Shown here one piece after another: positions 7,148 to 23,548 of a stretch of DNA of 64,000 nucleotides. Position 1 is the stretch's first letter, and every line of letters begins with the position of its first letter. This DNA is from an uncultured Gemmatimonadales bacterium. GTDB taxonomy: Bacteria; Gemmatimonadota; Gemmatimonadetes; Palauibacterales; Palauibacteraceae. Location of the stretch: positions 97,216-161,215 of the forward strand of contig CAWECO010000005.1 in the NCBI GenBank assembly GCA_963807645.1, read 5' to 3'. Position numbers and translations under genes: made by a program. Under the pieces are notes generated by a model. That model saw only the letters and a program-made list of their open reading frames with translations, searched no databases and had not been told where the DNA came from.

Positions 7148-8886
7148 CTACAACTTCCCTGCCCGCTTCAACGCCCTCCGCTTTTCCTCGTTCTCCCGCC
7201 ACGGCTTCCGCTCGAAGTAGCTTCGCGTCTCCGCCAGCACCTGCGGCGACAGCAGCACGAGGGCGATGAGGTTCGGCACGATCACTACGGCCAGGAAGAG
7301 ATCGCCCAGGTTCCAGATCACCGCGAGTGGCAGGACCGCGCCCACGAAGTGCATCGTCACGAACGCCATCTTGTACGGAAGCACGGCCGCCGAACCGAAC
7401 AGGTAGTTGGCGCATCGATCCCCGTAGTAGCTCCAGGAGATTGCCGTGGAGAGGGCGAACAAGAGAACCGCCAGCACCACGATCGTCCCGCCCCAGTCGC
7501 CGAGCGGCGAGAGACCGATCCGGAATCCCGCCTGGGTGAGCGGCGCCCCGCTCTCGTAGGCCAGCCCGTACAGAGTCGTGTGTCTGTTCCCGTCCGTGGC
7601 CTCGGCGATGGCGTCCACCGGCCGGATCGTTCCAGAGAACCGGACGGTCATGTCCGCGATCGATGAACAGCTCTTCGACGTGCACGTCGTGCCACGCGAG
7701 TAGCGGAGCGTCCAGGGTCTGCGCGTGCCGTCCGTCCGCGATCACGAGCTCCGCGGGGGCCTCGATACCCGCCCGCACGCCCTCGGCGTCCACGCTCACC
7801 CACGTCAGGTCGCCTCCATCCAGGACGATCGGCGTCGGCAGTCGCTCGTTCCAAACGCCAGTGGTCAGAATCACGAGCCCGGTCATGGTGCAGATGACGA
7901 GCGTGTCGATGAACGGCTCGAGGAGCGCCACCACGCCCTCGGACACCGGCTCGTCGGTCTTGGCCGCGGCGTGCGCGATGGGGGCGGAGCCCTGCCCTGC
8001 CTCGTTGGAGAACAGGCCGCGCCGCACGCCCCACATCATGGTCACGAGGAACGCGCCGACACCCGTGCCGGCGACCCCGGCGGTCGGATTGAAGGCCTCG
8101 CGGAAGATCAGCTCGAACGCGGGAATCACGGCCCCGATATTGAGCCCGATGATCGAGCAGAGCGCCGAACACGTAGAGGGCCGCCATGGCCGGTGCCAGG
8201 ATCGCCGTGACCTTGCCGATCCGCGTGATCCCACCAAGGATCACAGCCGCGACGACGGTCGACGTGATCACGCCGGTGGCCCAGGCCGGGATGCCGAACG
8301 TGGTTCGCATCGTGTCGGCGACCGTGTTCGCCTGGATGGCGTTTCCGGTGAGAAAGGCGGTGAGCCCGAGGAGGACGGCAAAGAGAATGGCCATCCACTT
8401 CCAATTCGGGCCGAGACCGCGCTCGATGTAGTACATGGGACCGCCGGAGACCGTCCCTTCCCAGGCGTGTCCGTGCGTTTCCTCGATCACACGGTACTTC
8501 TGCGCCAGCGTGACCTCGGTGTACTTGGTCGCCATTCCGAGCGCCGCCGTGACCCACATCCAGAACAGCGCGCCAGGACCGCCCCAGTGGATGGCGATCG
8601 CGACGCCGGCGATGTTGCCGATCCCCACCGTCGCCGACAGCGCCGTCGTGAGAGCCTGGAAGTGCGAGACGTCTCCCGGCTCATCGGGGTCGTCGTATGC
8701 CCCGGTCGTGACCTTGAATCCGTGCCCGAGGCGCCGGAGCTGGATGAAGCCGAGACGAAGGGTCAGGAAGACGCCCGTGCCGAGGAGGAGGATCACCATG
8801 TAGGGGATCGTCTCTCCCCCTACGGTGAGTCCCATCTCCACGATGTACCGATTGCCGACCTCGGACAGCCACTGGAAGAATTCCAT
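7148..8886 (-). CDS. Na+/alanine-glycine symporter (AGCS family), split into three frames by two 1-nt indels (~8166 and ~7650-7700)
   Basis: N-part: IGNIAGVAIAIHWGGPGALFWMW. Middle part: GVRRGLFSNEAGQGSAPIAHAAAKTDEPVSEGVVALLEPFIDT. C-part: LFALSTAISWSYYGDRCANYLFG. First junction reads ...YVFGALL|IIGLNIGAV. Confidence 0.75.
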
Positions 8887-9118
8887 GCACGCCCCGTCAG
8901 GTTTCGTTGATCTTCACGGCGCCTCTGCCGAATCGAGATCGGAGAAGATAGGGAGGGTGCATGGGTTCGTGCGAATCGGAGGGTGCCTGACCGTTGGCGA
9001 TGCTCGCCTCTTTCCTCGATGAGGCGTGCTCGACTTGCTTCGCGGAGCGCAAACGGTAGATCTTCAGTAATGGCACCTCGCTCCCGGGCTGCCCCCTCCC
9101 AGGCGAGCCATCCCCTTT

Positions 9119-9991
9119 GTGCGGACAGGCTACGTGTCAACTCGGGCAGCATGGTCGCGCGCCAGCATCCGGAGTCTGGCCCCCCTCCTGTTGTGGTCAT
9201 TCGTCCCCGGGACGCTCCTGGCGCAGTCCGGCTGGATCTTCGGGGGCGATGCCGTGGTCCGAAACACCTACCTGTGGCGGGGCGTGACACGTAGCAGCGC
9301 CTGGGTTCTGCAACCCGACCTCTTCCTCGCTGGATCGCAGGACCGCTCGAACATCACGGGCGGGTGGTGGAGCACGATCGATCTTGGGTCGGTCGATCCG
9401 GGTGACCCGACGAGCGCCGGACTGGGGCAGACATGGTTCGGCCAGAACGACCTGTGGCTCGAAGTTGCGGTGCGTTCGGGGACAGTCGACTTCACCGTAG
9501 GGGTCACCCGGTACCAGTTTGCGGATCGGTCCTTCGGCCAATCCGCTGACGCGGTGAACACCACCGAACTCTACGCCACGGCTGGTCTCTCTGCGGGTCC
9601 GCTCGTGCCCCGGATAGCTCTGTGGGTCGACGTGAGCCGGGTGCGAGGCGCGTACTTCGAGACGAGTCTGGACCTGAGGGTACCGGTTCTCCCTTCCTAC
9701 GAACCCGTCATCGCGGCATACCTGAGCGCCCTCGCCGGCTGGAGCGCCGGACAGGAGATCAACCGCCAGAGCCCGGACGAAGCGGCATATTTCGGCGACG
9801 CTGGCCTGACGCATCTCGATTTCGGCCTCGACGTAGCTGTCGGCCGCAATCAGCGGTACGTCACTCTCGAACTGCACGTCCTCGCCGCGCAGGACGGAGG
9901 AGCCCGAGCGGAGCCCGGCACTTCCAGAAACGCTTCCTGGTGGCTGGGGCTGGGATTCAGTGATTCCGTCGTGCTGGGAGCCCTGTGGTGA
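9119..9991 (+). CDS. Secreted/outer-membrane beta-barrel-like protein (hypothetical); first gene of the ceramidase-kinase operon
   Basis: Signal peptide ...IRSLAPLLLWSFVPGTLLAQS. Sequence has alternating hydrophobic periodicity and ends ...VVLGALW. Its stop overlaps the next gene start (9985). The antisense ORF 9197..10060 is Arg-rich noise. Confidence 0.45.
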   Translation: MRTGYVSTRAAWSRASIRSLAPLLLWSFVPGTLLAQSGWIFGGDAVVRNTYLWRGVTRSSAWVLQPDLFLAGSQDRSNITGGWWSTIDLGSVDPGDPTSAGLGQTWFGQNDLWLEVAVRSGTVDFTVGVTRYQFADRSFGQSADAVNTTELYATAGLSAGPLVPRIALWVDVSRVRGAYFETSLDLRVPVLPSYEPVIAAYLSALAGWSAGQEINRQSPDEAAYFGDAGLTHLDFGLDVAVGRNQRYVTLELHVLAAQDGGARAEPGTSRNASWWLGLGFSDSVVLGALW

Positions 9992-12129
9992 CGGCCAGAG
10001 CCGGACGGTGCGGCGCTTCGTGGATCCCTGCCTTCCTGGCGATCGCCGGTCCGGCAACACTGTGCAGTTGTGCCTCCACGGACATCACGACCCCGGCCGC
10101 GAGATCTGCGGAACCCACGGCATCAGAGCTTCCAGGCCTCAAGGTCGGATTCGGTCGCGCTGACATCACACCTCCGCCTGGGCTCGGGCTCAGTGACTAT
10201 GGCCCAGCAGGCGGGGTAGCTCGCGGGCATCGGCAGCGGCTCTACGCCCGGGCGATGATCCTGGAGGATGGGCGCGGTGAGAGGATCGCCTGGGTCACCG
10301 TCGACCTCGCCCAGCCGTCGTTTCTGTTGCACCGGGAAGCAGCCGAGCGGGTCGTCGCCGAAACCGGGATCGGAGCTGACAGACTGGTCCTCACAGCCAC
10401 CCATACCCATGCAGGCCCCGGTCATTTCTTCTCCAGTCGCAGCTACAACCAATTCGCACCGGGCATCCCGGGATTCGACCCCGCCGTCGTCGAGTTCCTG
10501 GCGGACCGTGTGGCGATGGCGATTCGAGAGGCATCCCAGGGGCTGACGCGGGCTGCGGCCGGGTGGGTACAGGCTCAGGTATGGGGGCTTACCAGGAATC
10601 GGAGTCTCGAGGCGCATGCGAGGAACCCGGCCGTAGAGGGCCGGCCGACACCGCCGCCTGGTCTGACCATGGCGCAAGGGGCCGTCGATCCGACATGGAC
10701 CATGCTTCGGGTGGACACGATTTCTTCGCAGGGAGACACGGTACCGGCCGGCGCGCTGAGCATCTTCGCGTACCATCCGACAGGCAATCCTCCCGCCAAT
10801 GACCTTTACGACTCTGACATCTCGGGTCTCGTGGAACGCGGGTTGGAAAGGCACATGGACGCGCTGGCCCAAGCCGGCACTCGATTCGTCCCGGCGACCG
10901 TTCACCTGGTGGCGAACGGCGCGGAGGGAGACGTAGTTCTGGAAGGCAGCCTCGATCACGACTGTGAGCGGCCTGCACAGAGAAGAGGTGTTCGGCCCGG
11001 AGGCCCTCGTACTCCCAAGCCTCTCGATGAATGGACATCTCTGGCTGATGACTCCGGATCGGAGTGCGTCGGCAAGGCCCGCGCGTTCATCAACACGACC
11101 GGAGACGCCCTCGCGGCCCAAGCGATCCGAATCTTCAGTGACGCCGGGCGTGACCTTCGTTCCGACCTGCAACTCAGGAGGTCCTTCAGGACTGTTCGCC
11201 TCACCGGTCCCGAGGCCTCGACCGACTTGTGCCCCGAGCCTCAGGTAGGCGCCGGAGCGTCAGCCGGGTCGGAAGGCAGCCAGAGCAACCTGAAGGACTG
11301 GAAGGTCCTCGGTCTGTTCCCACTGCACGCGGAAGAAGGTGCGGTCGACACGACGAGCGGTGGCTGCCAGGCTCCGAAACGCAGGCTGCCGTGGATCCTG
11401 CGCATCGGGATGGGAAACCTCCACTTCCCTGCCGAGGCGCAGCTCATGGTCGTGCAGATCGGAGACCTGGCGGCCGCGGCAGTCCCCCTCGAGGTGACGA
11501 CCGAAGTGGGGTTCCGAATCCGGGATGCCATGCTACGTACTTCATTGGAAGACGCTCTGGGCATCCGAGCGGTAGCTGTGGTTGGACTGGCCAACGGGTA
11601 CATGCAATACGTAGCTACGCGGGAAGAGTACCAGGCCCAGCACTACGAGGGCGGATCCACTCTCTATGGACCCGGATTCGCCGAGTTCCTTCAGGCCGAA
11701 ATCGTAGAACTGACGGCAAGATTGAGCGACGGAGGATATGCGCGGGTAGAGCCCATTTCGGGTAACCCCGGTTCGCAACGCAAGATTTTCCCGCGTACCA
11801 GAGACCCTCGCCCGGAGCGCCTGATCGTCACACGGACGAGTTGCGGGCGTGATACGGTAACGGTGCGTTGGCTCGACGCACCCCCGGGCTCTCTGCTCCC
11901 TTCCGACGGTCCGATGCTCGAACTGCGCCGATCGCGGACGGGGGAGAGGACGACCGTCACCTGGGACGACGATCGTTTCGTAGAGGTGAGGGGAATCGAA
12001 TCGGTGGACGGTCGGGGGTATCTGTGGGAAGCCCGCTGGACTCCACCTGGAGGCACCCGGGGCGACTACTCGGTCACGTTTCTTCGCTGGCCACGCGACG
12101 CGAGCGACAGGGGGTTCCGATGTCCGTGA
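9985..12129 (+). CDS. Neutral/alkaline ceramidase family lipoprotein
   Basis: Lipobox ...ATLCSCAS. N-terminal block GFGRADITPPPGLGLSDYGPAGGVARGHRQRLYARAMILEDG...VLTATHTHAGPGHFF matches the neutral ceramidase N-domain. At 714 aa the size fits. No frame breaks. Confidence 0.65.
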   Translation: MVTARAGRCGASWIPAFLAIAGPATLCSCASTDITTPAARSAEPTASELPGLKVGFGRADITPPPGLGLSDYGPAGGVARGHRQRLYARAMILEDGRGERIAWVTVDLAQPSFLLHREAAERVVAETGIGADRLVLTATHTHAGPGHFFSSRSYNQFAPGIPGFDPAVVEFLADRVAMAIREASQGLTRAAAGWVQAQVWGLTRNRSLEAHARNPAVEGRPTPPPGLTMAQGAVDPTWTMLRVDTISSQGDTVPAGALSIFAYHPTGNPPANDLYDSDISGLVERGLERHMDALAQAGTRFVPATVHLVANGAEGDVVLEGSLDHDCERPAQRRGVRPGGPRTPKPLDEWTSLADDSGSECVGKARAFINTTGDALAAQAIRIFSDAGRDLRSDLQLRRSFRTVRLTGPEASTDLCPEPQVGAGASAGSEGSQSNLKDWKVLGLFPLHAEEGAVDTTSGGCQAPKRRLPWILRIGMGNLHFPAEAQLMVVQIGDLAAAAVPLEVTTEVGFRIRDAMLRTSLEDALGIRAVAVVGLANGYMQYVATREEYQAQHYEGGSTLYGPGFAEFLQAEIVELTARLSDGGYARVEPISGNPGSQRKIFPRTRDPRPERLIVTRTSCGRDTVTVRWLDAPPGSLLPSDGPMLELRRSRTGERTTVTWDDDRFVEVRGIESVDGRGYLWEARWTPPGGTRGDYSVTFLRWPRDASDRGFRCP

Positions 12130-13763
12130 CGGACGAGGTCTTCATGCACCCCTTGAGCGATCCAGTGTCGGGCACGTCAGGGTCTTTACCGCTGACCGCC
12201 GATCGCTCATTTGGCGAAGAGGAGAGGGAGCTTCTCACGGGTCGGTGCCGTCTCGTTTTCGGCCTCGGCGTGGCGATCAGCCTGACCTTGATCCTTCTCT
12301 CCCGTGGCTTCATCAACAGGCCGCAACTCGCCGCCAACGCGCTGGAAAGCCTCGAAACCTGGTTCGACGCGGGACACCTCCTGTCCTTCGCCCTCGCGTT
12401 CGGCTCTCTGTTCATTGGAACGCCGAGCGTACGACGCCTCCAGGTAACCGCGTTCGCCGTACTCGCGGTCAACATTGTTCTGGTCGTATTCAGCATGGGC
12501 GTGATCAGACCTGACTATCCACCCGAACTCGCGATCGCGCTGCTGCTCTTCATCCCCGCCGCGGTGATTCCGTGGCGAGTCGGCTACCAGGTGAGCCTGG
12601 GCACGATAGGGGTCGCGACACCGGCCCTCGCTCAGGTGTTCAGTTACGCGTTCATGCCGCAGGCGAGGGAATACTGGGCCGGGATAGGAGGACAGGCGGC
12701 CTTTCAGAACCACCTCGTCGTCATGGGCGTAGGTCTTCTCATCCTGGCAGCCACTTCGGTCCTGGTCACACGGACGCTGTACAGCCTCCGCCGCAAGGCT
12801 CACAGGGCGAGGCAGCTCGGCAACTACACTATCGAACGGAAGATGGGAAGAGGCGGCATGGGAGAGGTGTTCGTGGCCCGCCACGCCCGAATGTGCCGAC
12901 CGAGTGCGGTGAAGGTCCTGCGAGTCTCGGGAAGCCTGGACCTGGACGCCCTCGCCCGCTTCGAGCGGGAGGTACAGCTCTCCTCCAGTCTCACGCATCC
13001 CAACACGATCACCATCTTCGACTTCGGCCGCGCGGGTCAGAACACGTTCTACTACGCAATGGAATACCTGGAAGGGCTAGACCTCCAGCGCCTCGTGAAG
13101 CGCTTCGGGCCGCTCGGCGCCGAACGAACGATTTTTCTGCTGACTCAGGTGTGTGGCTCCCTGGCGGAAGCCCACGGCCGTCAGATAGTGCATCGAGACA
13201 TGAAACCCGCGAACATCTTCGTGACGGAGCGGGGCGGACTGTTCGACTACGTGAAGGTGCTGGATTTCGGTCTCGCCAAGCACGTGGACTCGGGCGATGG
13301 GGAAGGTGTGACCAAGGCAGGGCTTATCCTCGGAACGCCGGAGTACATGGCCCCGGAAGCTATACGAGACGAGGGGCGGGTGGACACTCGCGCCGACCTT
13401 TACGGTTTGGGGGCGGTCGCCTATTTCCTGCTGACCGGTCAGCCGCCGTTTCAGTGCCGGACCCAGCTGCAAACCCTGGTTGACCAGGTGCGGAAACCTC
13501 CCGTACCACCCTCCGAGGTCACGGAAATCGAGATCCCGGTCGAACTCGAGTCGATCGTCCTGAAGTGCCTGGAGAAGTGGCCCGAAGAGCGCTATCAGAA
13601 GGTGGAAGAGATAGACGCGGCCCTGCGATCCGTACCCCTGGAGGAAACCTGGAATCTAGACCAGGCGAGAGAGTGGTGGACCCTGCATTCCGAGGTCGCT
13701 CGCCCCGTCCTGTATGAATCGGCACCCGGTAAGGGAGTTCCCGCCGCACTCCCCGGTCGATAA
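12120..13763 (+). CDS. Polytopic membrane Hanks-type Ser/Thr protein kinase
   Basis: ATG 12120 overlaps the ceramidase stop by 10 nt. N-terminal ~270 aa contains 6-7 predicted TM helices. Kinase motifs: GRGGMGEVFVARH, AVK, HRDMKPANIF, LDFGLAK, GTPEYMAPE. Confidence 0.8.
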   Translation: MSVTDEVFMHPLSDPVSGTSGSLPLTADRSFGEEERELLTGRCRLVFGLGVAISLTLILLSRGFINRPQLAANALESLETWFDAGHLLSFALAFGSLFIGTPSVRRLQVTAFAVLAVNIVLVVFSMGVIRPDYPPELAIALLLFIPAAVIPWRVGYQVSLGTIGVATPALAQVFSYAFMPQAREYWAGIGGQAAFQNHLVVMGVGLLILAATSVLVTRTLYSLRRKAHRARQLGNYTIERKMGRGGMGEVFVARHARMCRPSAVKVLRVSGSLDLDALARFEREVQLSSSLTHPNTITIFDFGRAGQNTFYYAMEYLEGLDLQRLVKRFGPLGAERTIFLLTQVCGSLAEAHGRQIVHRDMKPANIFVTERGGLFDYVKVLDFGLAKHVDSGDGEGVTKAGLILGTPEYMAPEAIRDEGRVDTRADLYGLGAVAYFLLTGQPPFQCRTQLQTLVDQVRKPPVPPSEVTEIEIPVELESIVLKCLEKWPEERYQKVEEIDAALRSVPLEETWNLDQAREWWTLHSEVARPVLYESAPGKGVPAALPGR

Positions 13764-13776
13764 GCACTCCAGGCGC

Positions 13777-13911
13777 TCAATCGTGCAGCATTCGCTCCGG
13801 CGGATCGTCCAGGTCGTCGAACTGACCGTCTCGAGCCGCCTTCACGAACAGCGCGGCGAAGATGCCCCCCAGGATCAGGGCGATCGGGAGAAGAAAGAAG
13901 ATCGAGTTCAC
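13777..13911 (-). CDS. ccoS: cbb3 oxidase maturation protein CcoS
   Basis: 44 aa: VNSIFFLLPIALILGGIFAALFVKAARDGQFDDLDDPPERMLHD, the CcoS signature (GQFDDLD). GTG start overlaps the ccoI stop (GTGA). Confidence 0.7.
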   Translation of the reverse strand: MNSIFFLLPIALILGGIFAALFVKAARDGQFDDLDDPPERMLHD

Positions 13912-16304
13912 GTGCTTCCACCGTTCATCGAGGCCTCTATGCGGGACGAGCCCCAGATCACCATGGCGCTCGACGCCGGCATGAGAATGGCGGCCACCAG
14001 CGGATTGATCAAACCCACGGCCGCCGCACTCACCGCCACGATGTTGTAGGCGATGGATCGCCGCTGGTTCCACCGGATGGCGCGCTCACAGGCGAAGGCC
14101 GCCTGAAAGCCCGAGACGAGCGGCTGCAGCGACCAGGTCGAGATCACGCCATCCGCCACCAGCACGCTGCTCGCGGCGCCGGTTCCCATCGCGACGCCGA
14201 CGTCGGCGGCCGCGAGGGCCGGCCCGTCGTTCAGGCCATCCCCGGCGAACAGGACCCGGCAGCCGGATTCCTGGCGAGCCCGCACCCAGGAGGCCTTACC
14301 CGCTGGATCGATTTCCGCCCAGAAACTGCTGACGCCCGCCGCGGCGGCGATCCGGCCGGCGACCTCCTTGTGGTCCCCGGTCAATAGCACGACCTCGAGC
14401 CCCCGGGCCTCGAGCTGCGCCACGGCCTCCGAGGAGTCCGCTCGGACGACGTCTCCGAGACGGATGCGCCCCGCTTCACCGACTTCGTTTCGAAGGACGA
14501 CCTCGCCCGGCCCGCCTGATACGAGCTCCCAAGGCGCGCCGTCCACGCGACCGGCGACCCCCGTTCCGGGAGCCTCGTGGACCGCTTCGGCTTTCGGCAG
14601 CGGGATACCACGGTCGACGGCCTCGGCGATGATGGCCCGGGCGATCGGGTGAATGCTGAAGCGCTCGAGTCCGGCCGCGATCCTCAGCGTGGTGTCGTCC
14701 GCGCTCACCACCGTGAGATCGCCGTGCGTGAGGGTGCCCGTCTTATCGAGGCCGACAGTATCGACGTCCACCAGGTCGAGCAGACCGTCGGCCGAGCGGA
14801 ACAACAGGCCCCGGCGGGCGGCCGCGCCCAGGCCGGCGGCAGCGGCGAGGGGCCGGGACAGGGCCAGGGCACACGGACAGGCGACTACCAGGACCGCGAC
14901 GCAGGCCCGAAGGGCCGTTCCGCTGTCACCGGCGAGGAGCCACCCGGTCGCGGTCAGGGTCGCGGCGATCAGGGTCGCGGCCGTGAACCAGGGGGCGATG
15001 CGGTCCGCGGTCGAAAGGCGGACGGGACGATCCGCAGCCGCCCTGAGGTCCGCAGCCATTCGCTGGATGGTGGTGTCCTCTCCAGCGCGGTCCACCCGAA
15101 CGGTGAGAGCCCCGTCCACCAGCACGGCGCCCGAGACCACTTCGTCGCCAGCCGACGATTGCCACCGGCTCCGCTTCGCCCGTGATCAGGGCCAGGCGTA
15201 CCGTCGCCTGGCCATCGACCACGACGCCGTCGGCCGCGAACTCCTCGCCGGCCCCTACATCGATCAGGTCGCCGAGGACGAGGTCGCCGGCCGGGACGAC
15301 CTCCACCGAGTCTCGCAACCCGCCTGCGGGCCGTGGCCGGAAGCGCGGCCGCCAGTGAGACTGCGGCCTCCGCTGCCCGGCGGCGCCCACGACCCTCGAG
15401 CATGCGGCCTGCGAGCAGCAGGGCGACGAGCATGGCGAGCGAATCGAAGTAGGTGTCCGTCCCCACGATCGTCGATACGAGGCCGTGCACGTACAGAACG
15501 GCCACCGCCAGCGCGATCGGGAGGTCCATGTGCAGGACGCGGTTCTTCAGACCCTGGATGGCTCCCGAGAAGAACGGCTCGGCGCACCACAGGGCCACGG
15601 GAGTCACGAGCAGCAGCGAGGCCCATCGGAACAGCGCCGCGTAGCGCTCTTCCATGGCGGACACCCAGCCCAGGTAGAGGGCCGCCGACATCATCATGAT
15701 GTTCATGGCGGCGAACGTGGCGACACCGAGCCGGATCACGAGGCCCTGGTCCGGCCGGCTCTCTTCGCCAAGGAGACGGGGCCGGTAGCCAAGTGCGGCC
15801 ACCTTGCCGGCCAGCGTGCCGAGATCCACGGCCTCGGGATCCCAGCGAAGGCTGGCCCGTCCGGTGGCATAGCTGACGGTCGCTTCCTGCGACACCGGGC
15901 GTGGCCTGCAGGATGTGCTCGGTCACCCACACACAGGAGGCGCAGCGAAGGCCATCGAGGACGAGGCGGACCTCGGAGGTACCGTCGTCGCAGAGCGTGA
16001 CGGGCACGGCGTCCCAGCCCGCTCGCAGGGGGCCCGGACGCGGAGCGTACTCCGAGCGGTCCTCGTAGTAGCGCTCGAGGCCGGCGTCCCGGATGATGGC
16101 CGCCGCCATCTCACACCCGTGGCAGCACCACGTGTCCTCGGAACCTTCGACGGGAGTGCCGCAGTGGGGACAGCGTGAGGTGATCAGCGCGATTCCGTCT
16201 GGTAGGACGGCACGACTTCGTCCCTGTCGGATACGGCTACGTAGATGAACACCGCGTTCATGATGATCACGATCAGCAGACCGACGATGATCATGATCGG
16301 CCAC
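13908..16304 (-). CDS. ccoI: Cu-translocating P1B-type ATPase CcoI/FixI; coding sequence broken across 4 frames (indels ~15895, ~15320, ~15125); 5' end uncertain
   Basis: Segments recovered: N-terminal CPHCGTPV...CCHGCE (FixI motif); TM region; A-domain LALITGEAEPVA (TGE); VGLDKTGTLT (DKTGT); GDGLNDGPALAAADVGVAMG. There is no in-frame ATG/GTG/TTG between the upstream small ORF stop and CPHCG. Confidence 0.75.
16184..16294 (-). CDS. 36-aa single-TM peptide ORF at the position normally held by ccoH/fixH (speculative)
   Basis: MIIVGLLIVIIMNAVFIYVAVSDRDEVVPSYQTESR lies 25 nt after the ccoG stop. It overlaps the out-of-frame 5' region of ccoI. No clear RBS; it could instead be a frameshifted N-terminus of CcoI. 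Confidence 0.25.
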   Translation of the reverse strand: MIIVGLLIVIIMNAVFIYVAVSDRDEVVPSYQTESR

Positions 16305-16319
16305 AGCAGCCGGTCGAAC

Positions 16320-17663
16320 TTACGGACCGGTTGAGCCAATCTCCGCTCCCGTCTTGAACGTGGGATGCAGCACGATCTCTCCATCGCCGTCGGTCACGCT
16401 CACCTCGAAGGCCGTGGTCCGGTCGAGATCCGAGGAGGGAGGAACGCGCACGATCAGCGGCACCGTCCGGGATTCCGCTGTGTTCAACTCGACCGGCTGA
16501 GAGATCACCTCGGCGTCGCCGAGGCCGGATACGACAATGTCGTACTCCACCGGCAGCGGCGACGGATCCTTGTTCGTGATCTTTACGAGGAACGTGTTCC
16601 GGGTGGATCCGTCCGTGTCCATCGTATATAGCGAACCCGGGGCCCGGTTCACGGTCGCCTCGAATGGGACGCGGCGGGCGACGAGGACGCCGATAGCCAC
16701 GAGAATCGATACGAGCAGCGTCCCATACACGAACGTTCGCGGTCGCCACCTGCGAGGCTTGCGGCCCTGCTCTTCGGCGACCGATCCGTAGGCTACCAGC
16801 GTCGGGTGCCCCAGCTGGTCCATGACGCTCGTGCACGCGTCGATACAGCGCGCGCACTGGATGCACTCGAGCTGGAACCCGTCGCGGATGTCTATGCCCT
16901 GCGGGCACACGGCCACGCACTTGTTGCAGTCTATGCACCGCCCGTCCTGGGCGGCCTTCTTGCCGGCTTCACGCGGCTCGCCCCGCTCCGTGCTGTACGT
17001 GATGATCAGGGACTCGTCGTCCGCGAGGGCGCTCTGGAAGCGTGCGTACGGACAGACGTAGTTGCAGAACTGCTCCCGGAACCACGTGAAGTCCCAGAAC
17101 CAGAACAGGGCGATGATCGCCGTCAGCGAGTACTCGACCGGTCCCGCCCGACCCGTCCACAGCTCCCGCGCCCCGGCGAAGATGCTCATCATGGCCATGG
17201 CCAGAAACACCGAAACGGCCAGGAACACCGACCACTTGGCGGCTTTTCGCCATGCCCGGTCGAACGTCCAGCCCCTGGCGTCCCGCCGCTTCCGCGTCAG
17301 CCGGTCGCCCTCGATCCACAGCTCGACGGGCCGGATCCACGATTCGAGGAACACAGTCTGCGGACACGCGTAGCCGCACCAGATGCGCCCGAAAATGGCC
17401 GTGAAAAAGAACAGCGAGAACGCCGCGAACCAGAGGAGGAGCAGCAGTATGATCGAGTCAGACGGCGTGAAGATATAGCCGAAGTGGTAGAACCGGCGCG
17501 CCGGGAGGTCGATGAGGATCGCGGGATAGCCGTTGATCATGATCCACGGCGCCGCCAGCAGCAGCAGGTGCAGGCCGAGGAACGTCCAGCGCCGGATCGT
17601 CATGAACCGGCCCTTGATGGACTGCGGATACACCCAGTCCCGTGTCTGTGAGAAACCGAGCAC
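16320..17663 (-). CDS. ccoG: cbb3 oxidase accessory 4Fe-4S ferredoxin-type protein CcoG
   Basis: Motifs CGYACPQTVF; CIDCNKCVAVCPQGIDIRDG; CIQCARCIDAC; multiple TM helices. Intact 447-aa ORF. Confidence 0.8.
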   Translation of the reverse strand: MLGFSQTRDWVYPQSIKGRFMTIRRWTFLGLHLLLLAAPWIMINGYPAILIDLPARRFYHFGYIFTPSDSIILLLLLWFAAFSLFFFTAIFGRIWCGYACPQTVFLESWIRPVELWIEGDRLTRKRRDARGWTFDRAWRKAAKWSVFLAVSVFLAMAMMSIFAGARELWTGRAGPVEYSLTAIIALFWFWDFTWFREQFCNYVCPYARFQSALADDESLIITYSTERGEPREAGKKAAQDGRCIDCNKCVAVCPQGIDIRDGFQLECIQCARCIDACTSVMDQLGHPTLVAYGSVAEEQGRKPRRWRPRTFVYGTLLVSILVAIGVLVARRVPFEATVNRAPGSLYTMDTDGSTRNTFLVKITNKDPSPLPVEYDIVVSGLGDAEVISQPVELNTAESRTVPLIVRVPPSSDLDRTTAFEVSVTDGDGEIVLHPTFKTGAEIGSTGP

Positions 17664-17714
17664 GTCTATTCCTTGCGGCGGCGAGCGACTCGACCGGGCT
17701 TCAGACCGCGCCGG

Positions 17715-18287
17715 TCAGCCGTCCTCGCCCGCCTCTTCCAAGTTCTCTGCCTCGCCGGCTTCTTCAGAATCGTCCGGCTCGCCGACGTACTCCGCGTTCT
17801 TTTCCAGCACATAGGCCGCGACCTGGTTGATCTTCTCCGGTCCGAGAATCGGACCCCAGGTCAGCATGCCCTTCTCGGGCACTCCTTCGGTGATGACGCG
17901 AATCACGGACTCCGAGTCACCGCCGTGAATCCACTCATCGTCATTCAGGGCGGTTCCGATTCCACCCTCAAGCGCCGCGCCGTGACACATGGTGCAGTTC
18001 TGCGCGTAGACGGCCTCACCGGCGGCCACCGCTTCGGGCGTGATCGCGAACGAGACGGCCGCGGCGGCCTCGACCGGCCACCTGACCTCGGCGGCCTGCA
18101 TCTCGCGGGCCAGGTGGCCCTCCTGCGAACGGTTCCCGATGAAGTGGTAGTGCACGGCGTAGGCGACGGCCCAGATCACCGTGAACCACAGGAGTCCCAG
18201 CCACCAGTCGGGAAGCGGGTTGTCATATTCCTCGATGCCGTCGCTCTCGTCGGCATGGCCGAGCACCTGGTTGGTGTCCTTGCTCAC
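17715..18287 (-). CDS. ccoP: cbb3 oxidase subunit III CcoP, short mono-haem form with acidic C-terminal tail
   Basis: GTG 18287 overlaps the ccoQ stop (GTGA). N-terminal DGIEEYDNPLPDWWL then a TM helix. One CTMCHG haem site. C-terminus EPDDSEEAGEAENLEEAGEDG. The longer ORF-track version (from 18509) overlaps ccoQ and is rejected. Confidence 0.6.
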   Translation of the reverse strand: MSKDTNQVLGHADESDGIEEYDNPLPDWWLGLLWFTVIWAVAYAVHYHFIGNRSQEGHLAREMQAAEVRWPVEAAAAVSFAITPEAVAAGEAVYAQNCTMCHGAALEGGIGTALNDDEWIHGGDSESVIRVITEGVPEKGMLTWGPILGPEKINQVAAYVLEKNAEYVGEPDDSEEAGEAENLEEAGEDG

Positions 18288-18463
18288 CGGTCGACTCCCT
18301 CCTCGAAGGGCAGCAGGGCCGCATCCTCGAACTTCTGCCTGTTTCGGGGCGTGTAGGCGTACCACACCCAGGCGAAGAACGCAGCCATGAACAGAACGGT
18401 CAGGACGGTAGCCAGCCCGCCCATTCCTATGGATTCCGAAGCCTGCTGGGTCAGCGGATTCAT
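18284..18463 (-). CDS. ccoQ: cbb3 oxidase small subunit CcoQ-like membrane peptide
   Basis: 59 aa: MNPLTQQASESIGMGGLATVLTVLFMAAFFAWVWYAYTPRNRQKFEDAALLPFEEGVDR. Has a single TM helix and a CcoQ-like AYxPxNxxxFEEAAxLPF tail. Its ATG overlaps the ccoO stop (ATGA). Confidence 0.55.
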   Translation of the reverse strand: MNPLTQQASESIGMGGLATVLTVLFMAAFFAWVWYAYTPRNRQKFEDAALLPFEEGVDR

Positions 18464-19192
18464 CAGTACTCCACTCCCTGCTTCTCGAGCGCCGCGCGAC
18501 CGTCCACACCGAGCCGCTGCAGGTAAGCGATCATCGCGACGATGGCCCGGTCGGGCTCTGATCCGATTCCGGCCTCGCTCAAGCGTCCGACAATAGCACC
18601 GCCCTGCTCGGCAAGGCTCTCCTCCACCCCGGCTATATCCGCTTCGGAGTAGGGAGTTCCCGTCTTCCTCAGGGCCACCATGGAGGCCCTCACGTCGGCC
18701 GCGTCGATGCGATTCCGTGAGTAGCCAGGAGTAGGACGGCATCACGCTGCCCGGCGTCGTGCTCCGCGGGTCGCGCATGTGCTCGTAGTGCCAGGCATCC
18801 GGGTACTTGCCGCCCACACGGTGCAGGTCGGGACCGATCCGCCGGGACCCGAGCTGGAAGGGCCGGTCGTACTGGTACTCCCAGGCCCGCGACCACGGAC
18901 CGTAGCGCAGGATCTCGGCGCGCATCGGCCGCACCCACTGCGAGTGGCACACGTAGCACCCCTCTGACACGTAGATGTCACGGCCCGCCACTTCGAGCGC
19001 CGTGTACGGCGTAACATCGGGCGAGATCTCGGTGCCGGCCGGCGTGAACATGGGGACGATCTCCACGATCCCGCCGATCAGAATCGCGATCGTCGCCCAT
19101 ACGGCGAAGTTCACGATGTTCGCCTCGAAGAACCGGCGGTGGAACTGCCCGTATTTCTTCTCGGAACCGTGGGTCTTCATTTCGTCAGCCAT
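18463..19192 (-). CDS. ccoO: cbb3 oxidase mono-haem subunit II CcoO; one 1-nt indel near 18700
   Basis: N-part: TM helix + CYVCHSQ + FQLGSRRIGPDLHRVGGKY + VMPSYSWLL. C-part sits in another frame (18463..18693): ALRKTGTPYSEADIAG...AIVAMIAYLQRLG. Confidence 0.8.
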
Positions 19193-19205: not shown

Positions 19206-20658
19206 TCAGTTGGCCGGGACGGGCGCCGCGGCGTCCGTCGAGACCGACTCCGGTCCTCGGATTGTCTTGAACAGGTTGTAGACCGCCATCAGGGCGCCCA
19301 CGAAGTAAAGCGTCCCGCCCAGCAGCCGCATCCAGTAGAACGGCTCGAGGCGGTGCACGATGTCGATGAAGATCGGGTTGGCCAGCTGTCCGCCGTCGCC
19401 GATGGCGCGCCACTGCAGGCCCTCCATGAGACCGGCCGCCCACATGGATACCGTATACAGCACGATGCCGATGGTGGCGAGCCAGAAGTGCTGCGTGGCC
19501 ATGTTCGGCTTTGCCAGCGGTTTGTTCCACAGCCTGGGAACCAGCCAGTAGAGCACGGCGAACGAGATCATGCCGTTCCACCCGAGCGCGCCCGAGTGCA
19601 CGTGGCCGATGACCCAGTTCGTGAAGTGGGCCAGTCCGTTCACGGCCCGGATCGACATCATCGGCCCCTCGAAGGTGCTCATGCCGTAGAAGCTCACGCC
19701 CACGACCATGAACTTGAGCACCGGGTCGGTGCGCAGCCGGTGCCAGGCTCCGCGCAGGGTGAGCAGTCCGTTCAGCATTCCGCCCCACGACGGCGCCAGC
19801 AGCACGATGCTGAAGACCATTCCCAGGGTCTGAGCCCAGTCGGGGAGGCCGGAGTACAGCAGGTGGTGAGGACCGGCCCAGATGTACAGGAAGATCAGTC
19901 CCCAGAAGTGGACGATCGACAGCCGGTAGCTGTAGATCGGACGCTCGGCCGCCTTCGGAAGGAAGTAGTACATCAGGCCGAGGAACGGCGTGGTCAGGAA
20001 GAAGCCCACCGCGTTGTGCCCGTACCACCACTGCACGAGGGCGTCCGTCATCCCCGAGTAGAGCGGATAGGAGCGCAGGAAGCGTGGCCGGCATCGCCAG
20101 GTTGTTGACGATGTGGAGCACCGCGATCGTGATCACGAACGACATGTAGAACCAGATCGCGACGTAGAGGTGCTTCACCTTCCGGATCGCGATCGTCCCG
20201 AAGAAGTTGATCGCGAAGACCACCCAGATCAGCGTGATGGCGATGTCGATCGGCCAGATCAGTTCGGCGTACTCGCGCGACTGCGACAGACCGAGCGGGA
20301 ACGTGATCGCGGCCGACACGATGATCAGCTGCCAGCCCCAGAAGTGGATCTTCGACAGCGCGTCGCTCCACATGCGCGTCTTCAGCAGACGCTGCATGGA
20401 GTAGTAGATCCCGGTAAAGCAGATGTTGCCGCCGAAGGCGAAGATCACGGCGTTGGTGTGCAGGGGACGCAGTCGACCGAAGGTGGTCCACGGGAGGCCA
20501 AGGTTGGCGGGCCACCACGCCAGCTGCAGGGCGATGATGACTCCGACCAGCATGCCCACTGCGCCCCAGATGATCGTCGCGATCGCGAACTTCTTGACGA
20601 TGTCGTCGTCATAGATCGCGGCGGGCACACCGGCACCCGCAGAAGCGGATTTTTCCAT
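19206..20658 (-). CDS. ccoN: cbb3 oxidase catalytic subunit I CcoN; -1 frameshift near 20065
   Basis: The two frames join at [12 protein letters not shown]|[30 protein letters not shown]. Cu/haem His ligands are present ([12 protein letters not shown] etc). Proposed start ATG 20658 ([10 protein letters not shown]...[16 protein letters not shown]); the ORF-track TTG at 20700 is the alternative. Confidence 0.85.
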
Positions 20659-20793
20659 GTGAAACCCCGGAGATTTGCCTGGTTGAGACGGTTGCGCCAA
20701 GGGGGTATCCTAAGGAGCCGGGAGCGGCGGGTAAAGTAGTACTGGAGTACCCCGCGGAGCCTCCCGTCGGAAGCCGAATGGAGGCAGCCGCAG

Positions 20794-21483
20794 ATGATCG
20801 AGCTGATCGCCGGAGCCGGAGTTGCCGGACTCATCGGGAGCATCCACTGCATCGGGATGTGTGGCTCTTTCGCCGTGGCCTGCGGAGGGACCGCGAGGGA
20901 GTCGTTCTTCTGGCACGCCGGCCGGCTCACGACCTACATGATCCTGGGCGCCCTCGCGGGGGCGTTCGGCGGTTCGATTCCGGGACCCGGCTGGGTGGCT
21001 GGCGTCGTCTCCACCGTACTCATCGTCTACTTCGCGGCGGTCCTCGCGGGCCTCGTACCGGAGCCGAAGATCAAGATCCCGGGAGTACAGCGGGCGGCCA
21101 GCAGTCTCATTTCCCGACCCGAAGCCGGGGCGCGCTACCTGTTCGGCCTCGTGAACGGCCTCCTCCCATGCGGCCTCGTGTACGCCACGCTCAGCGTGCC
21201 CGTCGCTCTCGGCGAGCCGGCGGCGGGAGCGGCGGCCATGCTACTGTTCGGACTGGGCACCGTTCCGGCGCTCGCGACCGTGACTTTCGGTCTACGGAAG
21301 ATTGCGTTCCAGGACATGCGGGTACGCCGGCTGCTGGCGGCGGGCGTGCTCGTGGCCGGATTATGGTCGATCGGGATGCGCCAGGGAGTGATCGGATCGG
21401 GTCACGGAATGGAGCACGGCATGGATGACGGCGACGCCCCGGCTATGGAGCACATGCCGCACGAAGCGCCGAGCCGGCGCAGT
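20794..21483 (+). CDS. DsbD_2 / 'TauE-SafE-like' polytopic membrane protein with HCIGMCG motif and His/Met-rich C-terminal tail; 3' end uncertain
   Basis: GGAGG RBS; motif GSIHCIGMCGSF; ~7 TM helices. Tail GSGHGMEHGMDDGDAPAMEHMPHE looks like a Cu-binding Met/His motif. The frame then runs on as Arg-rich noise to 21669, which suggests an indel near 21480. Confidence 0.55.
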
Positions 21484-21578
21484 GATCCGATCTCGTCGAT
21501 ACTGGGGCGGATCTGTTCCTCGCGGCGGCTCTCGCCGGCGCACCGGAGGCGCCGGCCCAGGAGCCGACCACCGTCCTC

Positions 21579-22010
21579 GTGGTCCGGCACGCCGAGAAGG
21601 TCTCGGAAGCCAGCGACGCCGTGCTCAGCGACCTTGGCCGGGCTCGGGCCAGCGAGCTCCAGCGCGTGACCGCGGAGTCCATGGTTTCGGTTCTGTTCGC
21701 GTCGCAGCACGCCCGCGCGCAGCAGACCCTCGAGCCGATCGCCGATCGGCTGGGGCTCGGAATCCTGGTCCACGACGCGGCGGATTCGGAGGGCCTGGCG
21801 AACCGCATTCTGACCGACCACGCGGGGGAGGTGATCCTGGTGTCGGGCCATTCCAACACGGTCACGGCCATCGTGACCGCTCTCGGCGCCCCGGAACCTC
21901 CGCCCGTCGAGGACTGGGACTATGACGACCTGTTTGTCGTGACGATCGGTCCTGGAGGCGACGCCAGTGTCATGCACCTGAGCTACGGCGCCCCATCCAC
22001 TGAGCCGTAG
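21579..22010 (+). CDS. Histidine-phosphatase-superfamily protein, SixA-like, probably secreted; true start upstream of 21579 and unresolved
   Basis: VVRHAEK (RHG catalytic motif) ... LVSGHSNTV. The in-frame upstream sequence SDLVDTGADLFLAAALAGAPEAPAQEPTT resembles a signal peptide, but there is no start codon before the stop at 21483. A frame break at the 5' end is likely. Confidence 0.55.
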   Translation: MVRHAEKVSEASDAVLSDLGRARASELQRVTAESMVSVLFASQHARAQQTLEPIADRLGLGILVHDAADSEGLANRILTDHAGEVILVSGHSNTVTAIVTALGAPEPPPVEDWDYDDLFVVTIGPGGDASVMHLSYGAPSTEP

Positions 22011-22018
22011 CCGGCCGG

Positions 22019-22876
22019 TCAGTTCCCCTCGCGCGTCGCGTCGAATCCAGTCTCGCAGAGCCGCTTGAACCGGTTGAGTACGTTCGTCGTAACCCGGTTG
22101 TGAATCGCTTCCCAGGTCCGCCGGATCGGCCGGACCCTCGACAGTCGACTCCTTCCATAGGGATTGAACCCGACCGCGAAGAACAGCTGTGTGGGCGCGA
22201 TCTCGTGGCGCGCGGCGATGGGCGATCGGGCGAACACCGAGAAGATGCCGATCGGATACCCTCCACTGCAGTCCCACAGGATATATCGCGCATTGTCGAG
22301 GTCCGAATCGGCCGGAACCCGGCGCACCGTCCGGGCGTTCATCTCGAACAGAGTGGCCAGGCGTCCTCCGGTGACAGATCCCAGCCAACCACCGATGGAC
22401 CGTCCCAGCAGAACGACCCTCACATTCTCGGGTCGGCCCTCCTGGATCTCCAGGGTCGCCACGTGGTTCGGCCAATATGGCGAGTCGCCCCTCCAGCGGA
22501 GAATCTCCTCGAACACGTACCGCACCGGAGCGTCGATGCCGATCCGGTGAATGTTCAGGACGGAGTAGAGCGACACGTCGATGCCGATCCGCTGGGCGAT
22601 GCGATGGGTGTAGTCTTCCCTCACCCGCTCCGTGTCGAAGTTCACCAGAGTTGGAATGGGCGGACGGTTGACGAAATAGCCCCGGACGTCAGCGGCCAGG
22701 CTGCGAGTCACGTCGGGCGCGGTCGTGTGTTCGGTCACAGAGCGCTGGCTCTCTTGTGTGGGTTCAACCGACGCCGGGAAGGGCCCCGTGGAGGTCACAA
22801 TGTGATCTGTTGGAGCCGGCCGGGCAACGAAAAGGTGCAGGCGTTGTTGTGGTCGGATTGGACAGCGCCCGGCCAC
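22019..22876 (-). CDS. Hypothetical protein (no recognised domain)
   Basis: 285-aa ORF with normal composition, unlike its antisense partner. Alternative GTG start at 22738 (VTEHTTAPDV...). Conserved-looking core: YILWDCSGGYPIGIF. Confidence 0.35.
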   Translation of the reverse strand: MAGRCPIRPQQRLHLFVARPAPTDHIVTSTGPFPASVEPTQESQRSVTEHTTAPDVTRSLAADVRGYFVNRPPIPTLVNFDTERVREDYTHRIAQRIGIDVSLYSVLNIHRIGIDAPVRYVFEEILRWRGDSPYWPNHVATLEIQEGRPENVRVVLLGRSIGGWLGSVTGGRLATLFEMNARTVRRVPADSDLDNARYILWDCSGGYPIGIFSVFARSPIAARHEIAPTQLFFAVGFNPYGRSRLSRVRPIRRTWEAIHNRVTTNVLNRFKRLCETGFDATREGN

Positions 22877-22921
22877 GTCCTCATCGTGGTTGGCCGGCCA
22901 ACCCTGGATCGAACGGACGAA

Positions 22922-23548
22922 ATGGAAGTCACGACACTCTACGCGTTGATCGGCTACCTCGGCTCAGCATTCGTCGTGACGTCGCTCGCGATGCGATCGA
23001 TCCTCAAGCTCCGCCTGATCGGACTCGCCGGAGCCGTCACGTTCGTGATCTACGGCTACCTGATCGGCGCCTGGCCCATCGTGTGGACCAACGTCGTGAT
23101 CGTCCTGATCCACCTCCACTTTCTCGGCGAAATCCGGCGCTCAGACGAGTACTTCAAGGTTCTCGAGGTGCGCCGGGAATCGAACTACTTGCGGTACTTT
23201 CTGGATCACTTCGCCGACGACATCGAGGGGGCGTGGCCTGGTTTCGAATTCGAGCCGGAGGACGACATTCTCACCCTGTTCATCCTTCGCGACCTCGTCC
23301 CGGCTGGCCTCTTCGTGGCCAGGGTTCTCGGCGATGCCACGCTCGAGCTCGAGCTGGACTACGCAATTCCCGGATACCGGGACTTCAAGATCGGCCGCTA
23401 TCTGTATTCCGGAGAAGCCCTGCGATCTCGCGGATTCTCGACGATCGTTGCGCGAACGAAGGGTGATCGACCGGCGGACTACCTGCTGAAGATGGGTTTC
23501 GAGCAGGAATCGGCGGGCGGCAATACGTGGGTCCGCGCCCTGGGCTAG
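22922..23548 (+). CDS. Small membrane-anchored protein with C-terminal acyltransferase(GNAT)-like fold (hypothetical)
   Basis: ATG 22922 (MEVTTLYALIGYLGSAF...). Three N-terminal TM helices, then a soluble domain ending ...GFSTIVARTKGDRPADYLLKMGFEQ. The 5' part of the listed 482-aa ORF is antisense noise. Confidence 0.4.
   Translation: MEVTTLYALIGYLGSAFVVTSLAMRSILKLRLIGLAGAVTFVIYGYLIGAWPIVWTNVVIVLIHLHFLGEIRRSDEYFKVLEVRRESNYLRYFLDHFADDIEGAWPGFEFEPEDDILTLFILRDLVPAGLFVARVLGDATLELELDYAIPGYRDFKIGRYLYSGEALRSRGFSTIVARTKGDRPADYLLKMGFEQESAGGNTWVRALG

Follow-up and report, generated by a model that had tools for sequence, protein, structure and literature searches.

A DsbD_2-family membrane protein encoded divergently from ccoN in a Gemmatimonadales genome: a conserved companion of cbb3 oxidase genes and a candidate copper-handling assembly factor

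Introduction

What is the role of the small membrane protein whose gene lies divergent from ccoN, the gene for subunit I of a cbb3 oxidase, in the DNA of an uncultured Gemmatimonadales bacterium? cbb3 oxidases serve respiration at very low oxygen in many bacteria, including pathogens, and to our knowledge Rhodobacter is the sole case in which the route of copper to the cbb3 active site (CcoG/CcoI/CcoS/Sco) has been worked out in detail. We addressed this question computationally in a stretch of 64,000 nucleotides (contig CAWECO010000005.1 of assembly GCA_963807645.1, forward strand positions 97,216 to 161,215), which is called the window hereafter and in whose coordinates positions are given. 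A first-pass annotation, made by a model from the letters of the window alone, had assigned the protein to the PF13386 type and had proposed that it forms a copper-handling module for cbb3 together with a SixA-like secreted phosphatase encoded just downstream. The comparison with relatives described below shows that genes for DsbD_2 proteins with HCxGMCG and LPCG motifs regularly accompany the structural and assembly genes of cbb3.

Results

The gene belongs to the DsbD_2 family

The gene runs from an ATG at 20794 to 21485 on the forward strand (229-230 amino acids after repair of a frameshift described below), and its translation is a hydrophobic protein that begins MIELIAGAGVAGLIGSIHCIGMCGSF. 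In a Pfam scan, PF13386 (DsbD_2) was matched over profile positions 4-197 of 199 with a score of 111.6 bits (cut-off 24.9; E 6.1e-32), so the family assigned in the first-pass annotation was the correct one, and it was the sole family found at E up to 0.1. Neither TauE (PF01925) nor DsbD_TM (PF02683) matched the protein at that threshold, and the same scan gave no match to a family of the major facilitator superfamily (MFS). Homologues at 95-55% identity are 226-247 amino acids in length.

The family is labelled 'TauE/SafE' or 'tauE' publicly and appears as a mere 'tauE' arrow in published cbb3 gene maps; in a map from Kangiella, the family member is gene 15, placed after ccoS (PMC6000758). 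The sulfite-exporter name TauE/SafE finds no support among the model matches, and we infer that it was transferred from distantly related families. An exporter of sulfite or organosulfonates unconnected to the oxidase, as this name would have it, is extremely unlikely, because PF13386 alone is matched and PF01925 is not, and because such a function would leave both the linkage to cbb3 genes and the metal-type residues of the protein unexplained. The window gene is a typical member of its family, which has been catalogued but not characterised and whose cbb3 linkage is already visible in databases.

Linkage to cbb3 genes persists across phyla in different arrangements

A motif-patterned scan of one genome per species yielded at least 586 loci with relatives of the window protein, and the best 80 of these were analysed by querying their flanks of up to 10 kb with the window phosphatase and with nine proteins of the cbb3 cluster of a metagenomic relative (L001). 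CcoN, CcoO, CcoG or CcoS was found within 10 kb in 69 of the 80 species-level loci, and CcoN itself in 60, as compared with a chance rate of about 0.5% by our own estimate (a 20-kb interval in a genome taken to be ~4 Mb long). Nine of the 11 loci without a cbb3 match are on contigs of at most 11.3 kb with no more than ~4.7 kb of upstream sequence, and the other two are from Psychrobacter; in two sister Psychrobacter loci, ccoS lies directly upstream of the DsbD_2 gene.

At least four gene arrangements relative to cbb3 were seen, varying by lineage. The gene is divergent from ccoN, as in the window, at 13 loci (11 Gemmatimonadota and two metagenome-assembled genomes (MAGs) labelled Alphaproteobacteria), and this layout is shared by the metagenomic relatives with an 89% (L001) and an 80% (L004) identical protein. 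In L015 it is co-directional with ccoN and 37 nucleotides upstream of it. At 44 loci from Bacteroidota, Ignavibacteriota, Kiritimatiellia, Zixibacteria and Kangiella, it lies in the same orientation behind ccoG and a FixH-like gene, with a 1-nucleotide overlap between the FixH-like and DsbD_2 genes in a Flavobacterium (L049). In Mariprofundus and Psychrobacter it adjoins ccoS, and at the Psychrobacter loci L040, L042, L052 and L060 no cbb3 structural genes stand within 10 kb. Since the linkage outlasts rearrangement, it points to a function shared with cbb3. The first-pass annotation had named such genes as recurrent beside cbb3 loci in Bacteroidota; this recurrence is confirmed, reaches many other phyla, and includes co-occurrence in the related genomes of Gemmatimonadota themselves.

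The breadth of this linkage also bears on whether the protein could be a general metal efflux or detoxification permease (for copper, nickel or cobalt) of the LysE/NicO type that resides near cbb3 genes without a specific assembly role. Such a permease would fit the soft-metal motifs and tails of the family described below, a three-domain multicopper oxidase encoded directly downstream on the same strand in L004 (8830-10572), and, in L014, a second P-type ATPase encoded downstream of DsbD_2. It would also fit a weak match of residues 115-166 to the RcnA nickel/cobalt efflux model (NCBIfam NF007454, E 0.013), but this match scored 14.7 bits against a cut-off of 195. Linkage at 69 of 80 loci, in many phyla and in at least four arrangements, would be difficult to account for if the protein had no role specific to cbb3, and no metal-sensor gene was noticed adjoining DsbD_2 in the annotated loci (L001, L004, L086 and L087). 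We therefore consider general metal efflux improbable.

Invariant His, Cys and Met residues and a metal-type tail

Alignment of 78 complete homologues from several phyla showed that the HCxGMCG part of the motif GSIHCIGMCGSF in the first transmembrane helix (TM1; residues 15-26, 20836..20871, +) and the LPCG part of LLPCGLVYA in TM4 (residues 123-131, 21160..21186, +) are invariant, in part perforce since the two motifs served as scan patterns. The former is the HCxxMCG motif that had been reported for TM1 at first reading. Invariant residues comprise H18, C19, M22, C23, G24, Y48, G52, G118 and G122 and, further along, L124, P125, C126, G127, V129, Y130, M149, G153 and T156, of which Y48, G52, M149, G153 and T156 are invariant though they lie outside the scan patterns. 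F152, which is not part of the scan pattern either, was listed as invariant in the homologue alignment too.

The protein ends in an acidic C-terminal tail, GHGMEHGMDDGDAPAMEHMPHE (21400..21465, +), in which 8 of 22 residues are Met or His. Homologues at 95-55% identity read ...GSGHGMQHG..D.PAMEH.QHE in frame and reach a stop codon 3-10 residues on. Because close homologues carry the Met/His tail in frame and then stop, the tail of the window protein can be taken as real, and the concern raised in the first-pass annotation that it might be out-of-frame noise falls away. Of the 78 homologues, 74 have a tail with one Cys or more or with a minimum of four Met/His residues, and the tail sequence differs by lineage while its chemistry stays constant. 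Gemmatimonadota tails follow GHGMQHG...PAMEH.QHE, Kangiella tails are His-rich, and those of Zetaproteobacteria and of one acidobacterium are Met/His-rich. In Bacteroidota and Ignavibacteriota, LGIPYxSP is conserved, and a short linker leads from it to a terminal CH, CCH or CC. Extreme tails occur in Psychrobacter (L040, L042, L052 and L060), as tandem (MNHEQ)n repeats or as tails that are Asp/Met/His-rich over the last 45-70 residues.

The sequence fits six transmembrane spans. The mean number of Lys and Arg residues was 3.1, 5.8 and 4.1 in loops 1-2, 3-4 and 5-6, as compared with 0.03 in the N-terminus, 0.45 in loop 2-3 and 0.17 in loop 4-5. Because of this positive-inside charge pattern, the N-terminus and the C-terminal tail are predicted to lie outside the cytoplasm, in keeping with the periplasmic tail proposed in the first-pass annotation. 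SCO1 and c-type cytochrome domains are periplasmic, and the C-terminal fusions of family members to SCO1 or to multihaem cytochrome c agree with the predicted periplasmic topology of the tail.

Fusion proteins and fold comparison: copper or electrons

Longer relatives were retrieved by a profile search of 1.84 billion representatives. P0390 (563 amino acids) joins DsbD_2 to SCO1/SenC (E 1e-48, with SCPDVCP) and Sel1, an architecture repeated in about a dozen clusters (P0405-P0415 among the fusion proteins), and P0417 (419 amino acids) represents a second DsbD_2-SCO1/SenC group that has no Sel1 and is only 38% identical to the P0390 group. In a Kiloniellaceae MAG (L171), the fusion gene (8001-9701) sits between a FixS-like gene and a gene for a CcoI-like P-type ATPase and comes directly after a COX1 gene and a FixO-cytochrome c fusion gene, in a cbb3-type cluster; no oxidase genes were found in the own neighbourhood of P0417.

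Given the invariant His, Cys and Met residues within the helices, the metal-type tails of 74 of the 78 homologues, the SCO1/SenC fusions and the multicopper oxidase neighbour of L004, the best reading is that the DsbD_2 protein is a copper relay or permease that handles copper for cbb3 assembly, to which we assign a probability of roughly 0.5. The acidic Met/His tail would capture copper on the periplasmic side and would pass it to an intramembrane site made up of His18-Cys19-x-x-Met22-Cys23 in TM1, Pro-Cys126 in TM4 and Met149 in TM5. The protein would then move or relay Cu(I) across or along the membrane, import and export not being distinguishable by sequence, and the copper might finally enter the route of CcoG/CcoI/CcoS (and Sco) by which CcoN receives its CuB copper.

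Several points weigh against this copper reading. The invariance of the scan motifs is partly forced, as noted above, and the linkage covers the best 80 loci of a motif-selected subfamily, while the wider family counts 9092 representatives at E up to 0.001. Literature searches on PF13386, DsbD_2 and cbb3 found no functional or experimental study of any family member. CcoA homologues occur in Bacteroidetes too (PMC5829832), so that the protein is not a simple CcoA replacement. Fold comparison hints that the relatives of the protein are thiol-disulfide electron carriers rather than metal transporters. By sequence, CcdA 2n4x is the sole relative of solved structure, and its profile match is weak (E 0.016). 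An AlphaFold2 model built from a 17-sequence alignment was weak, with helices seen at low confidence (predicted local distance difference test score (pLDDT) 63, predicted template modelling score (pTM) 0.58); in a Foldseek comparison of this model with the PDB, the most probable match was CcdA 5vkv (probability 0.89, template modelling score (TM) 0.40, E 0.2), and no match was obtained at E up to 0.001. The SCO1 fusion mimics the layout of DsbD, in which a thioredoxin-fold domain on the periplasmic side comes after the membrane domain, and, by this analogy, would suit electron transfer at least as well as copper. Finally, P0297 (370 amino acids) carries behind its DsbD_2 part a C-terminal domain with four CXXCH haem-binding motifs.

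Together, the last three of these points suggest a conduit for reductant like CcdA/DsbD, in which the cysteines of TM1 and TM4 would pass reducing equivalents from thioredoxin in the cytoplasm on to the periplasm and would serve cbb3 assembly via electrons. The CxxxC of Sco/SenC-type chaperones, or the CXXCH of apo-CcoO or apo-CcoP, would be its possible targets, to be kept reduced. Pfam files DsbD_2 as 'cytochrome c biogenesis protein transmembrane region', CcdA too has a Cys in each of TM1 and TM4, the DsbD_2-SCO1 fusions resemble the beta-gamma architecture of DsbD, and the Bacteroidota tails end in Cys pairs, all of which would suit such a conduit. However, PF02683 is not matched, the fold evidence is weak, and the invariant His18, Met22, third Cys and Met149 would be superfluous for thiol exchange. 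Moreover, the tails of Gemmatimonadota, Psychrobacter, Kangiella and Zetaproteobacteria are Cys-free and so could not engage in disulfide exchange. We regard the conduit, with the targets suggested for it, as less likely than the copper reading but as its main rival. Under the copper and the electron reading alike, the DsbD_2 protein would be a cbb3 biogenesis factor, and that it is one appears highly probable.

Frameshifts and repaired gene models

The uncorrected open reading frame (ORF) from 20794 runs to 21669 (291 amino acids, P0241). A frame ambiguity in this region had been noted in the first-pass annotation; it is real insofar as it stands in the public assembly, and comparison with relatives attributes it to assembly error and not to biology. 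Alignment with L086 and L087 places a frameshift of +2 nucleotides (equivalently -1 nucleotide) at ~21466..21472 (+), which gives rise to the spurious 291-amino-acid ORF: its residues past ~226 (~21472-21669) are out-of-frame noise, and the last 65 match no homologue. After repair, the true DsbD_2 stop is TGA 21483-21485, and the protein ends in ...MEHMPHEA(X)EPAQ*, with 215 of 229 residues identical to the protein of L086, the closest intact relative and the reference for placing both indels.

The second indel is an extra A at 21511 (+), a 1-nucleotide insertion within the phosphatase signal peptide (window GGCGGATCTG vs GGCGG-CCTG in L086). The phosphatase frame is open from 21486, yet it contains no start codon before 21579. 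Removing A21511 yields a phosphatase of 175 amino acids from GTG 21482 (MIRSRRYWGGLFLAAALAGAPEAPAQEPTTVLVVRHAEK...), identical to P0121 in 158 of 175 residues without gaps, whose GTG overlaps the DsbD_2 stop as GTGA. Likewise, in L086 and L087 the DsbD_2 genes (229 and 226 amino acids) overlap a 175- or 178-amino-acid His_Phos_1 gene by 4 nucleotides. A single public contig of 310,752 bp has entries for the 291-amino-acid ORF P0241 as well as for a 109-amino-acid phosphatase fragment (P0126).

Comparison with L005 revealed further uncompensated 1-nucleotide insertions in ccoN (20082), ccoO (18714) and ccoI (15163, 15318 and 15889), with an amino-acid identity to the L001 proteins of 72-93% on either side of every break in a cbb3 gene. 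In total, seven indels across 8.2 kb break ccoN, ccoO, ccoI, the DsbD_2 gene and the phosphatase gene. Because so many uncompensated indels fall within genes that are otherwise highly conserved, they indicate assembly error rather than gene decay. The same sequence does stand in the public assembly, as would be expected if the breaks were genuine, marking either decaying pseudogenes or a true 291-amino-acid protein with an extension that overlaps the phosphatase gene. Both the conserved identity flanking each break and the 65 residues without a counterpart in any homologue argue otherwise, as does the recovery of a full-length orthologue, signal peptide included, by a one-base repair, and genuine breaks are very improbable. 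An exact 53-mer search of metagenome contigs found no error-free copy of the locus. The practical result for the window is a set of corrected gene models. At about one indel per 1.2 kb in this part of the public contig, other genes of the window may be broken too.

The downstream phosphatase is a local partner

The repaired phosphatase gene (21482..22010, +; GTG start) encodes 175 amino acids with a match to PF00300 (His_Phos_1) at 40.1 bits against a cut-off of 21.7, and the catalytic residues R35-H36, R55, R78 and H123 are invariant in 19 phosphatase homologues. Its N-terminus, MIRSRRYWGGLFLAAALAGAPEAPAQE, is a predicted Sec-type signal peptide present in all close orthologues; the intact orthologues P0121 and P0122 (175 amino acids, beginning MIR.SRCW.GL...) confirm it, and several orthologues have a lipoprotein-like ...LAC or ...AAC. 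A histidine phosphatase with an apparent signal peptide, as first annotated, is therefore what the gene encodes.

The label 'SixA-like' holds for size and fails otherwise. SixA and the window phosphatase are both short branch-1 enzymes (a core of ~150 amino acids) with catalytic RH..E and GHSN motifs, and SixA structures align over most of the length of the window phosphatase. However, SixA is cytoplasmic and has no signal peptide, whereas the window phosphatase is predicted to be exported, and the SixA model TIGR00249 gave 12.5 bits, far below its cut-off of 74.5. PmrG/Ais-type periplasmic phosphatases are exported, as is the window phosphatase, and the PmrG model gave 13.5 bits against a cut-off of 170.

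The first-pass annotation had joined the two genes into one unit, a module in which membrane protein and secreted phosphatase would jointly handle copper for cbb3. In the closest relatives, the two genes do share a strand, with the 4-nucleotide overlap in L086 and L087 or 37 nucleotides apart in L085, and in the metagenome scan of 80 loci the phosphatase comes directly after DsbD_2 at five of the seven orthologous loci of at least 60% identity (L089, L090, L092 and L094 among them), as it does at L085-L088, found separately. The L091 ortholog, also of at least 60% identity, does not follow DsbD_2, and the upstream sequence of L093 is too short to tell. By contrast, none of 74 phosphatase homologues of at most 49% identity in the same scan had DsbD_2 or cbb3 genes nearby, and the phosphatase was found neither in any of the 80 DsbD_2 genome loci nor in the metagenome relatives L001-L004. 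The phosphatase position is taken by a convergent PNPOx gene in L001 and by another gene in L004, and a second conserved partner was not found in nine other divergent-type loci (seven of them Gemmatimonadota), whose downstream genes are all different. We know of no chemistry that ties a histidine phosphatase to copper delivery. A joint two-gene module is thus quite improbable; judged from the overlapping genes, the phosphatase is translationally coupled to DsbD_2 in one narrow clade only, and is a local operon partner with no evidence of a function shared with the DsbD_2 protein. What stands of the proposed module is a copper role of the membrane protein as its best reading.

The divergent spacer and the neighbouring genes

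The ccoN gene (19206..20659, -) was recovered by tblastn as two high-scoring segment pairs that differ in frame and show 87% and 93% identity to L001 CcoN, in line with the 1-nucleotide insertion noted above. The remaining cbb3 cluster, located by tblastn with L001 proteins, comprises ccoO, ccoQ, ccoP, ccoG, a 51-amino-acid mini-FixH, ccoI and ccoS (13777..19192, -). The 51-amino-acid ORF (16187-16339, -) sits between ccoG and ccoI, is conserved in L001, L004 and L087, and resembles FixH/CcoH in the transmembrane part alone, by a sub-threshold match to positions 4-41 of 150 in PF05751 (E 6.6e-4). The Gemmatimonadota represented by the window, L001, L004 and L087 seem to carry a 'mini-CcoH' without the periplasmic domain.

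Between the ATG of ccoN (20659, -) and that of the DsbD_2 gene (20794, +) lies an intergenic region of 134 nucleotides (20660..20793; given as 135 in the first-pass annotation, which saw in it room for co-regulation). Its length (131-135 nucleotides) and much of its sequence are conserved in L005, L013, L085-L087, L089, L090 and L094. A sigma-70-like promoter, TTGAGA-17-TATCCT (20683..20711, +), points toward the DsbD_2 gene; this consensus match is the sole promoter-like site in 20560-22200, as compared with 0.1 in shuffled sequences, and its hexamers are conserved in relatives. About 27 nucleotides past it stands a palindrome, AGTAC-N4-GTAC(C/T) (20738..20751), a candidate operator that has 2 matches in the window against 0.26 expected and whose arms are conserved, with varying N4, in nine relatives (L005, L006, L013, L085-L087, L089, L090 and L094). 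These consensus matches fit a spacer that holds a dedicated operator, and co-regulation with ccoN would be allowed by it. An FNR/FixK-type box (TTGAT-N4-ATCAA) was sought in the spacer by eye, where only a poor half-match was seen and none is claimed. A Shine-Dalgarno sequence, GGAGG (20780..20784, +), is read 9 nucleotides 5' of ATG 20794. Rfam gave no RNA element in 20400-22300, and a terminator-like match at 21673 was set aside, being inside the phosphatase gene and within chance expectation.

Further genes flank the locus. Upstream of the cbb3 cluster, the product of 9985-12129 (+) belongs to the neutral/alkaline ceramidase family (PF04734, E 8.8e-55), and that of an ORF at 11868-13763 (+) resembles, as judged by eye, a membrane-anchored Ser/Thr kinase; both are unrelated to the present finding. 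On the other side, ORFs of 285 and 222 amino acids (22019-22876, - and 22880-23548, +) have no Pfam match. Two Pfam-less genes occupy the matching positions in L086, where they are followed, as in the window, by an NmrA-like gene and an ABC-type ATPase, and the two ORFs appear to be conserved proteins of unknown function.

Discussion

Genes of this family, to which the name of a sulfite exporter is usually given in error, occur in the cbb3 clusters of Gemmatimonadota, Bacteroidota, Ignavibacteriota, Zetaproteobacteria and some Gammaproteobacteria. What the present analysis adds is evidence across phyla, from tails, invariant ligands and SCO1 fusions, through which a copper role becomes testable. 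With its copper-type ligands and occasional SCO1 fusion, the protein is a concrete target for mutation and a candidate oxidase assembly factor. Extending the copper reading beyond the window, we tentatively propose that the HCxGMCG/LPCG subfamily might be a missing, phylum-spanning cbb3 assembly factor, a small Cu(I) permease or relay that would provide CcoA-independent copper supply where CcoA is absent.

Among known systems, there is a likeness to the membrane domain of CcdA/DsbD, which is likewise a small six-helix protein with conserved Cys in TM1 and TM4 and which the window protein matches weakly in sequence and perhaps in fold. DsbD has a gamma domain of thioredoxin fold, and some DsbD_2 relatives similarly carry a C-terminal periplasmic SCO1. 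The window protein differs from CcdA/DsbD in the absence of PF02683, in its three invariant Cys accompanied by His and Met, and in its Met/His tail. Its TM1 reads H-C-x-x-M-C-G, as opposed to P-C-x-x-P in CcdA/DsbD, and the genes to which its family is linked are those of cbb3, not those of cytochrome c maturation.

The role proposed here is that of CcoA, an MFS copper importer with MxxxM and HxxxM motifs that is needed for cbb3 assembly in Rhodobacter (PMC5829832). In gene maps of some Rhizobiales, ccoA is drawn with the clusters for cbb3 structure and assembly; cbb3 without CcoA is reported for 23% of alphaproteobacterial genomes, and a CcoA-independent copper supply is postulated (PMC5829832). 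Both CcoA and the window protein are membrane proteins with Met/His copper motifs, and both would supply copper to cbb3, a role that is experimentally proven for CcoA and proposed here for the window protein. The two differ in architecture, CcoA being a 12-helix MFS protein and the window protein a 6-helix DsbD_2 protein, and they are not mutually exclusive. The DsbD_2 protein is at most a functional analogue of CcoA.

SCO1/SenC/PrrC proteins share with the window protein a CxxxC spacing (C19-x3-C23 in the window) and a His as candidate copper ligands, and SCO1/SenC is fused to the DsbD_2 family in Kiloniellaceae-type and P0417-type proteins. By contrast, SCO1 is a soluble protein of thioredoxin fold without sequence homology to the window protein, whose CxxxC lies within a transmembrane helix. 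MerT and MerC are small membrane importers of mercury, in which a periplasmic element hands the metal to a Cys pair in TM1. They offer a picture of how the window protein might work, while differing from it in fold and helix count, and no homology is claimed.

Finally, CcoX, CcoY and CcoZ of Campylobacter jejuni are extra genes of the cbb3 locus that were found by mutagenesis to be needed for full oxidase activity (PMC8267372). Considered as possible homologues of the window protein, they were rejected as unrelated families (DUF4006, a 33-residue peptide and DUF5130/TPM; PMC8267372), and their bearing on the window is that of a precedent for unrecognised cbb3 accessory factors.

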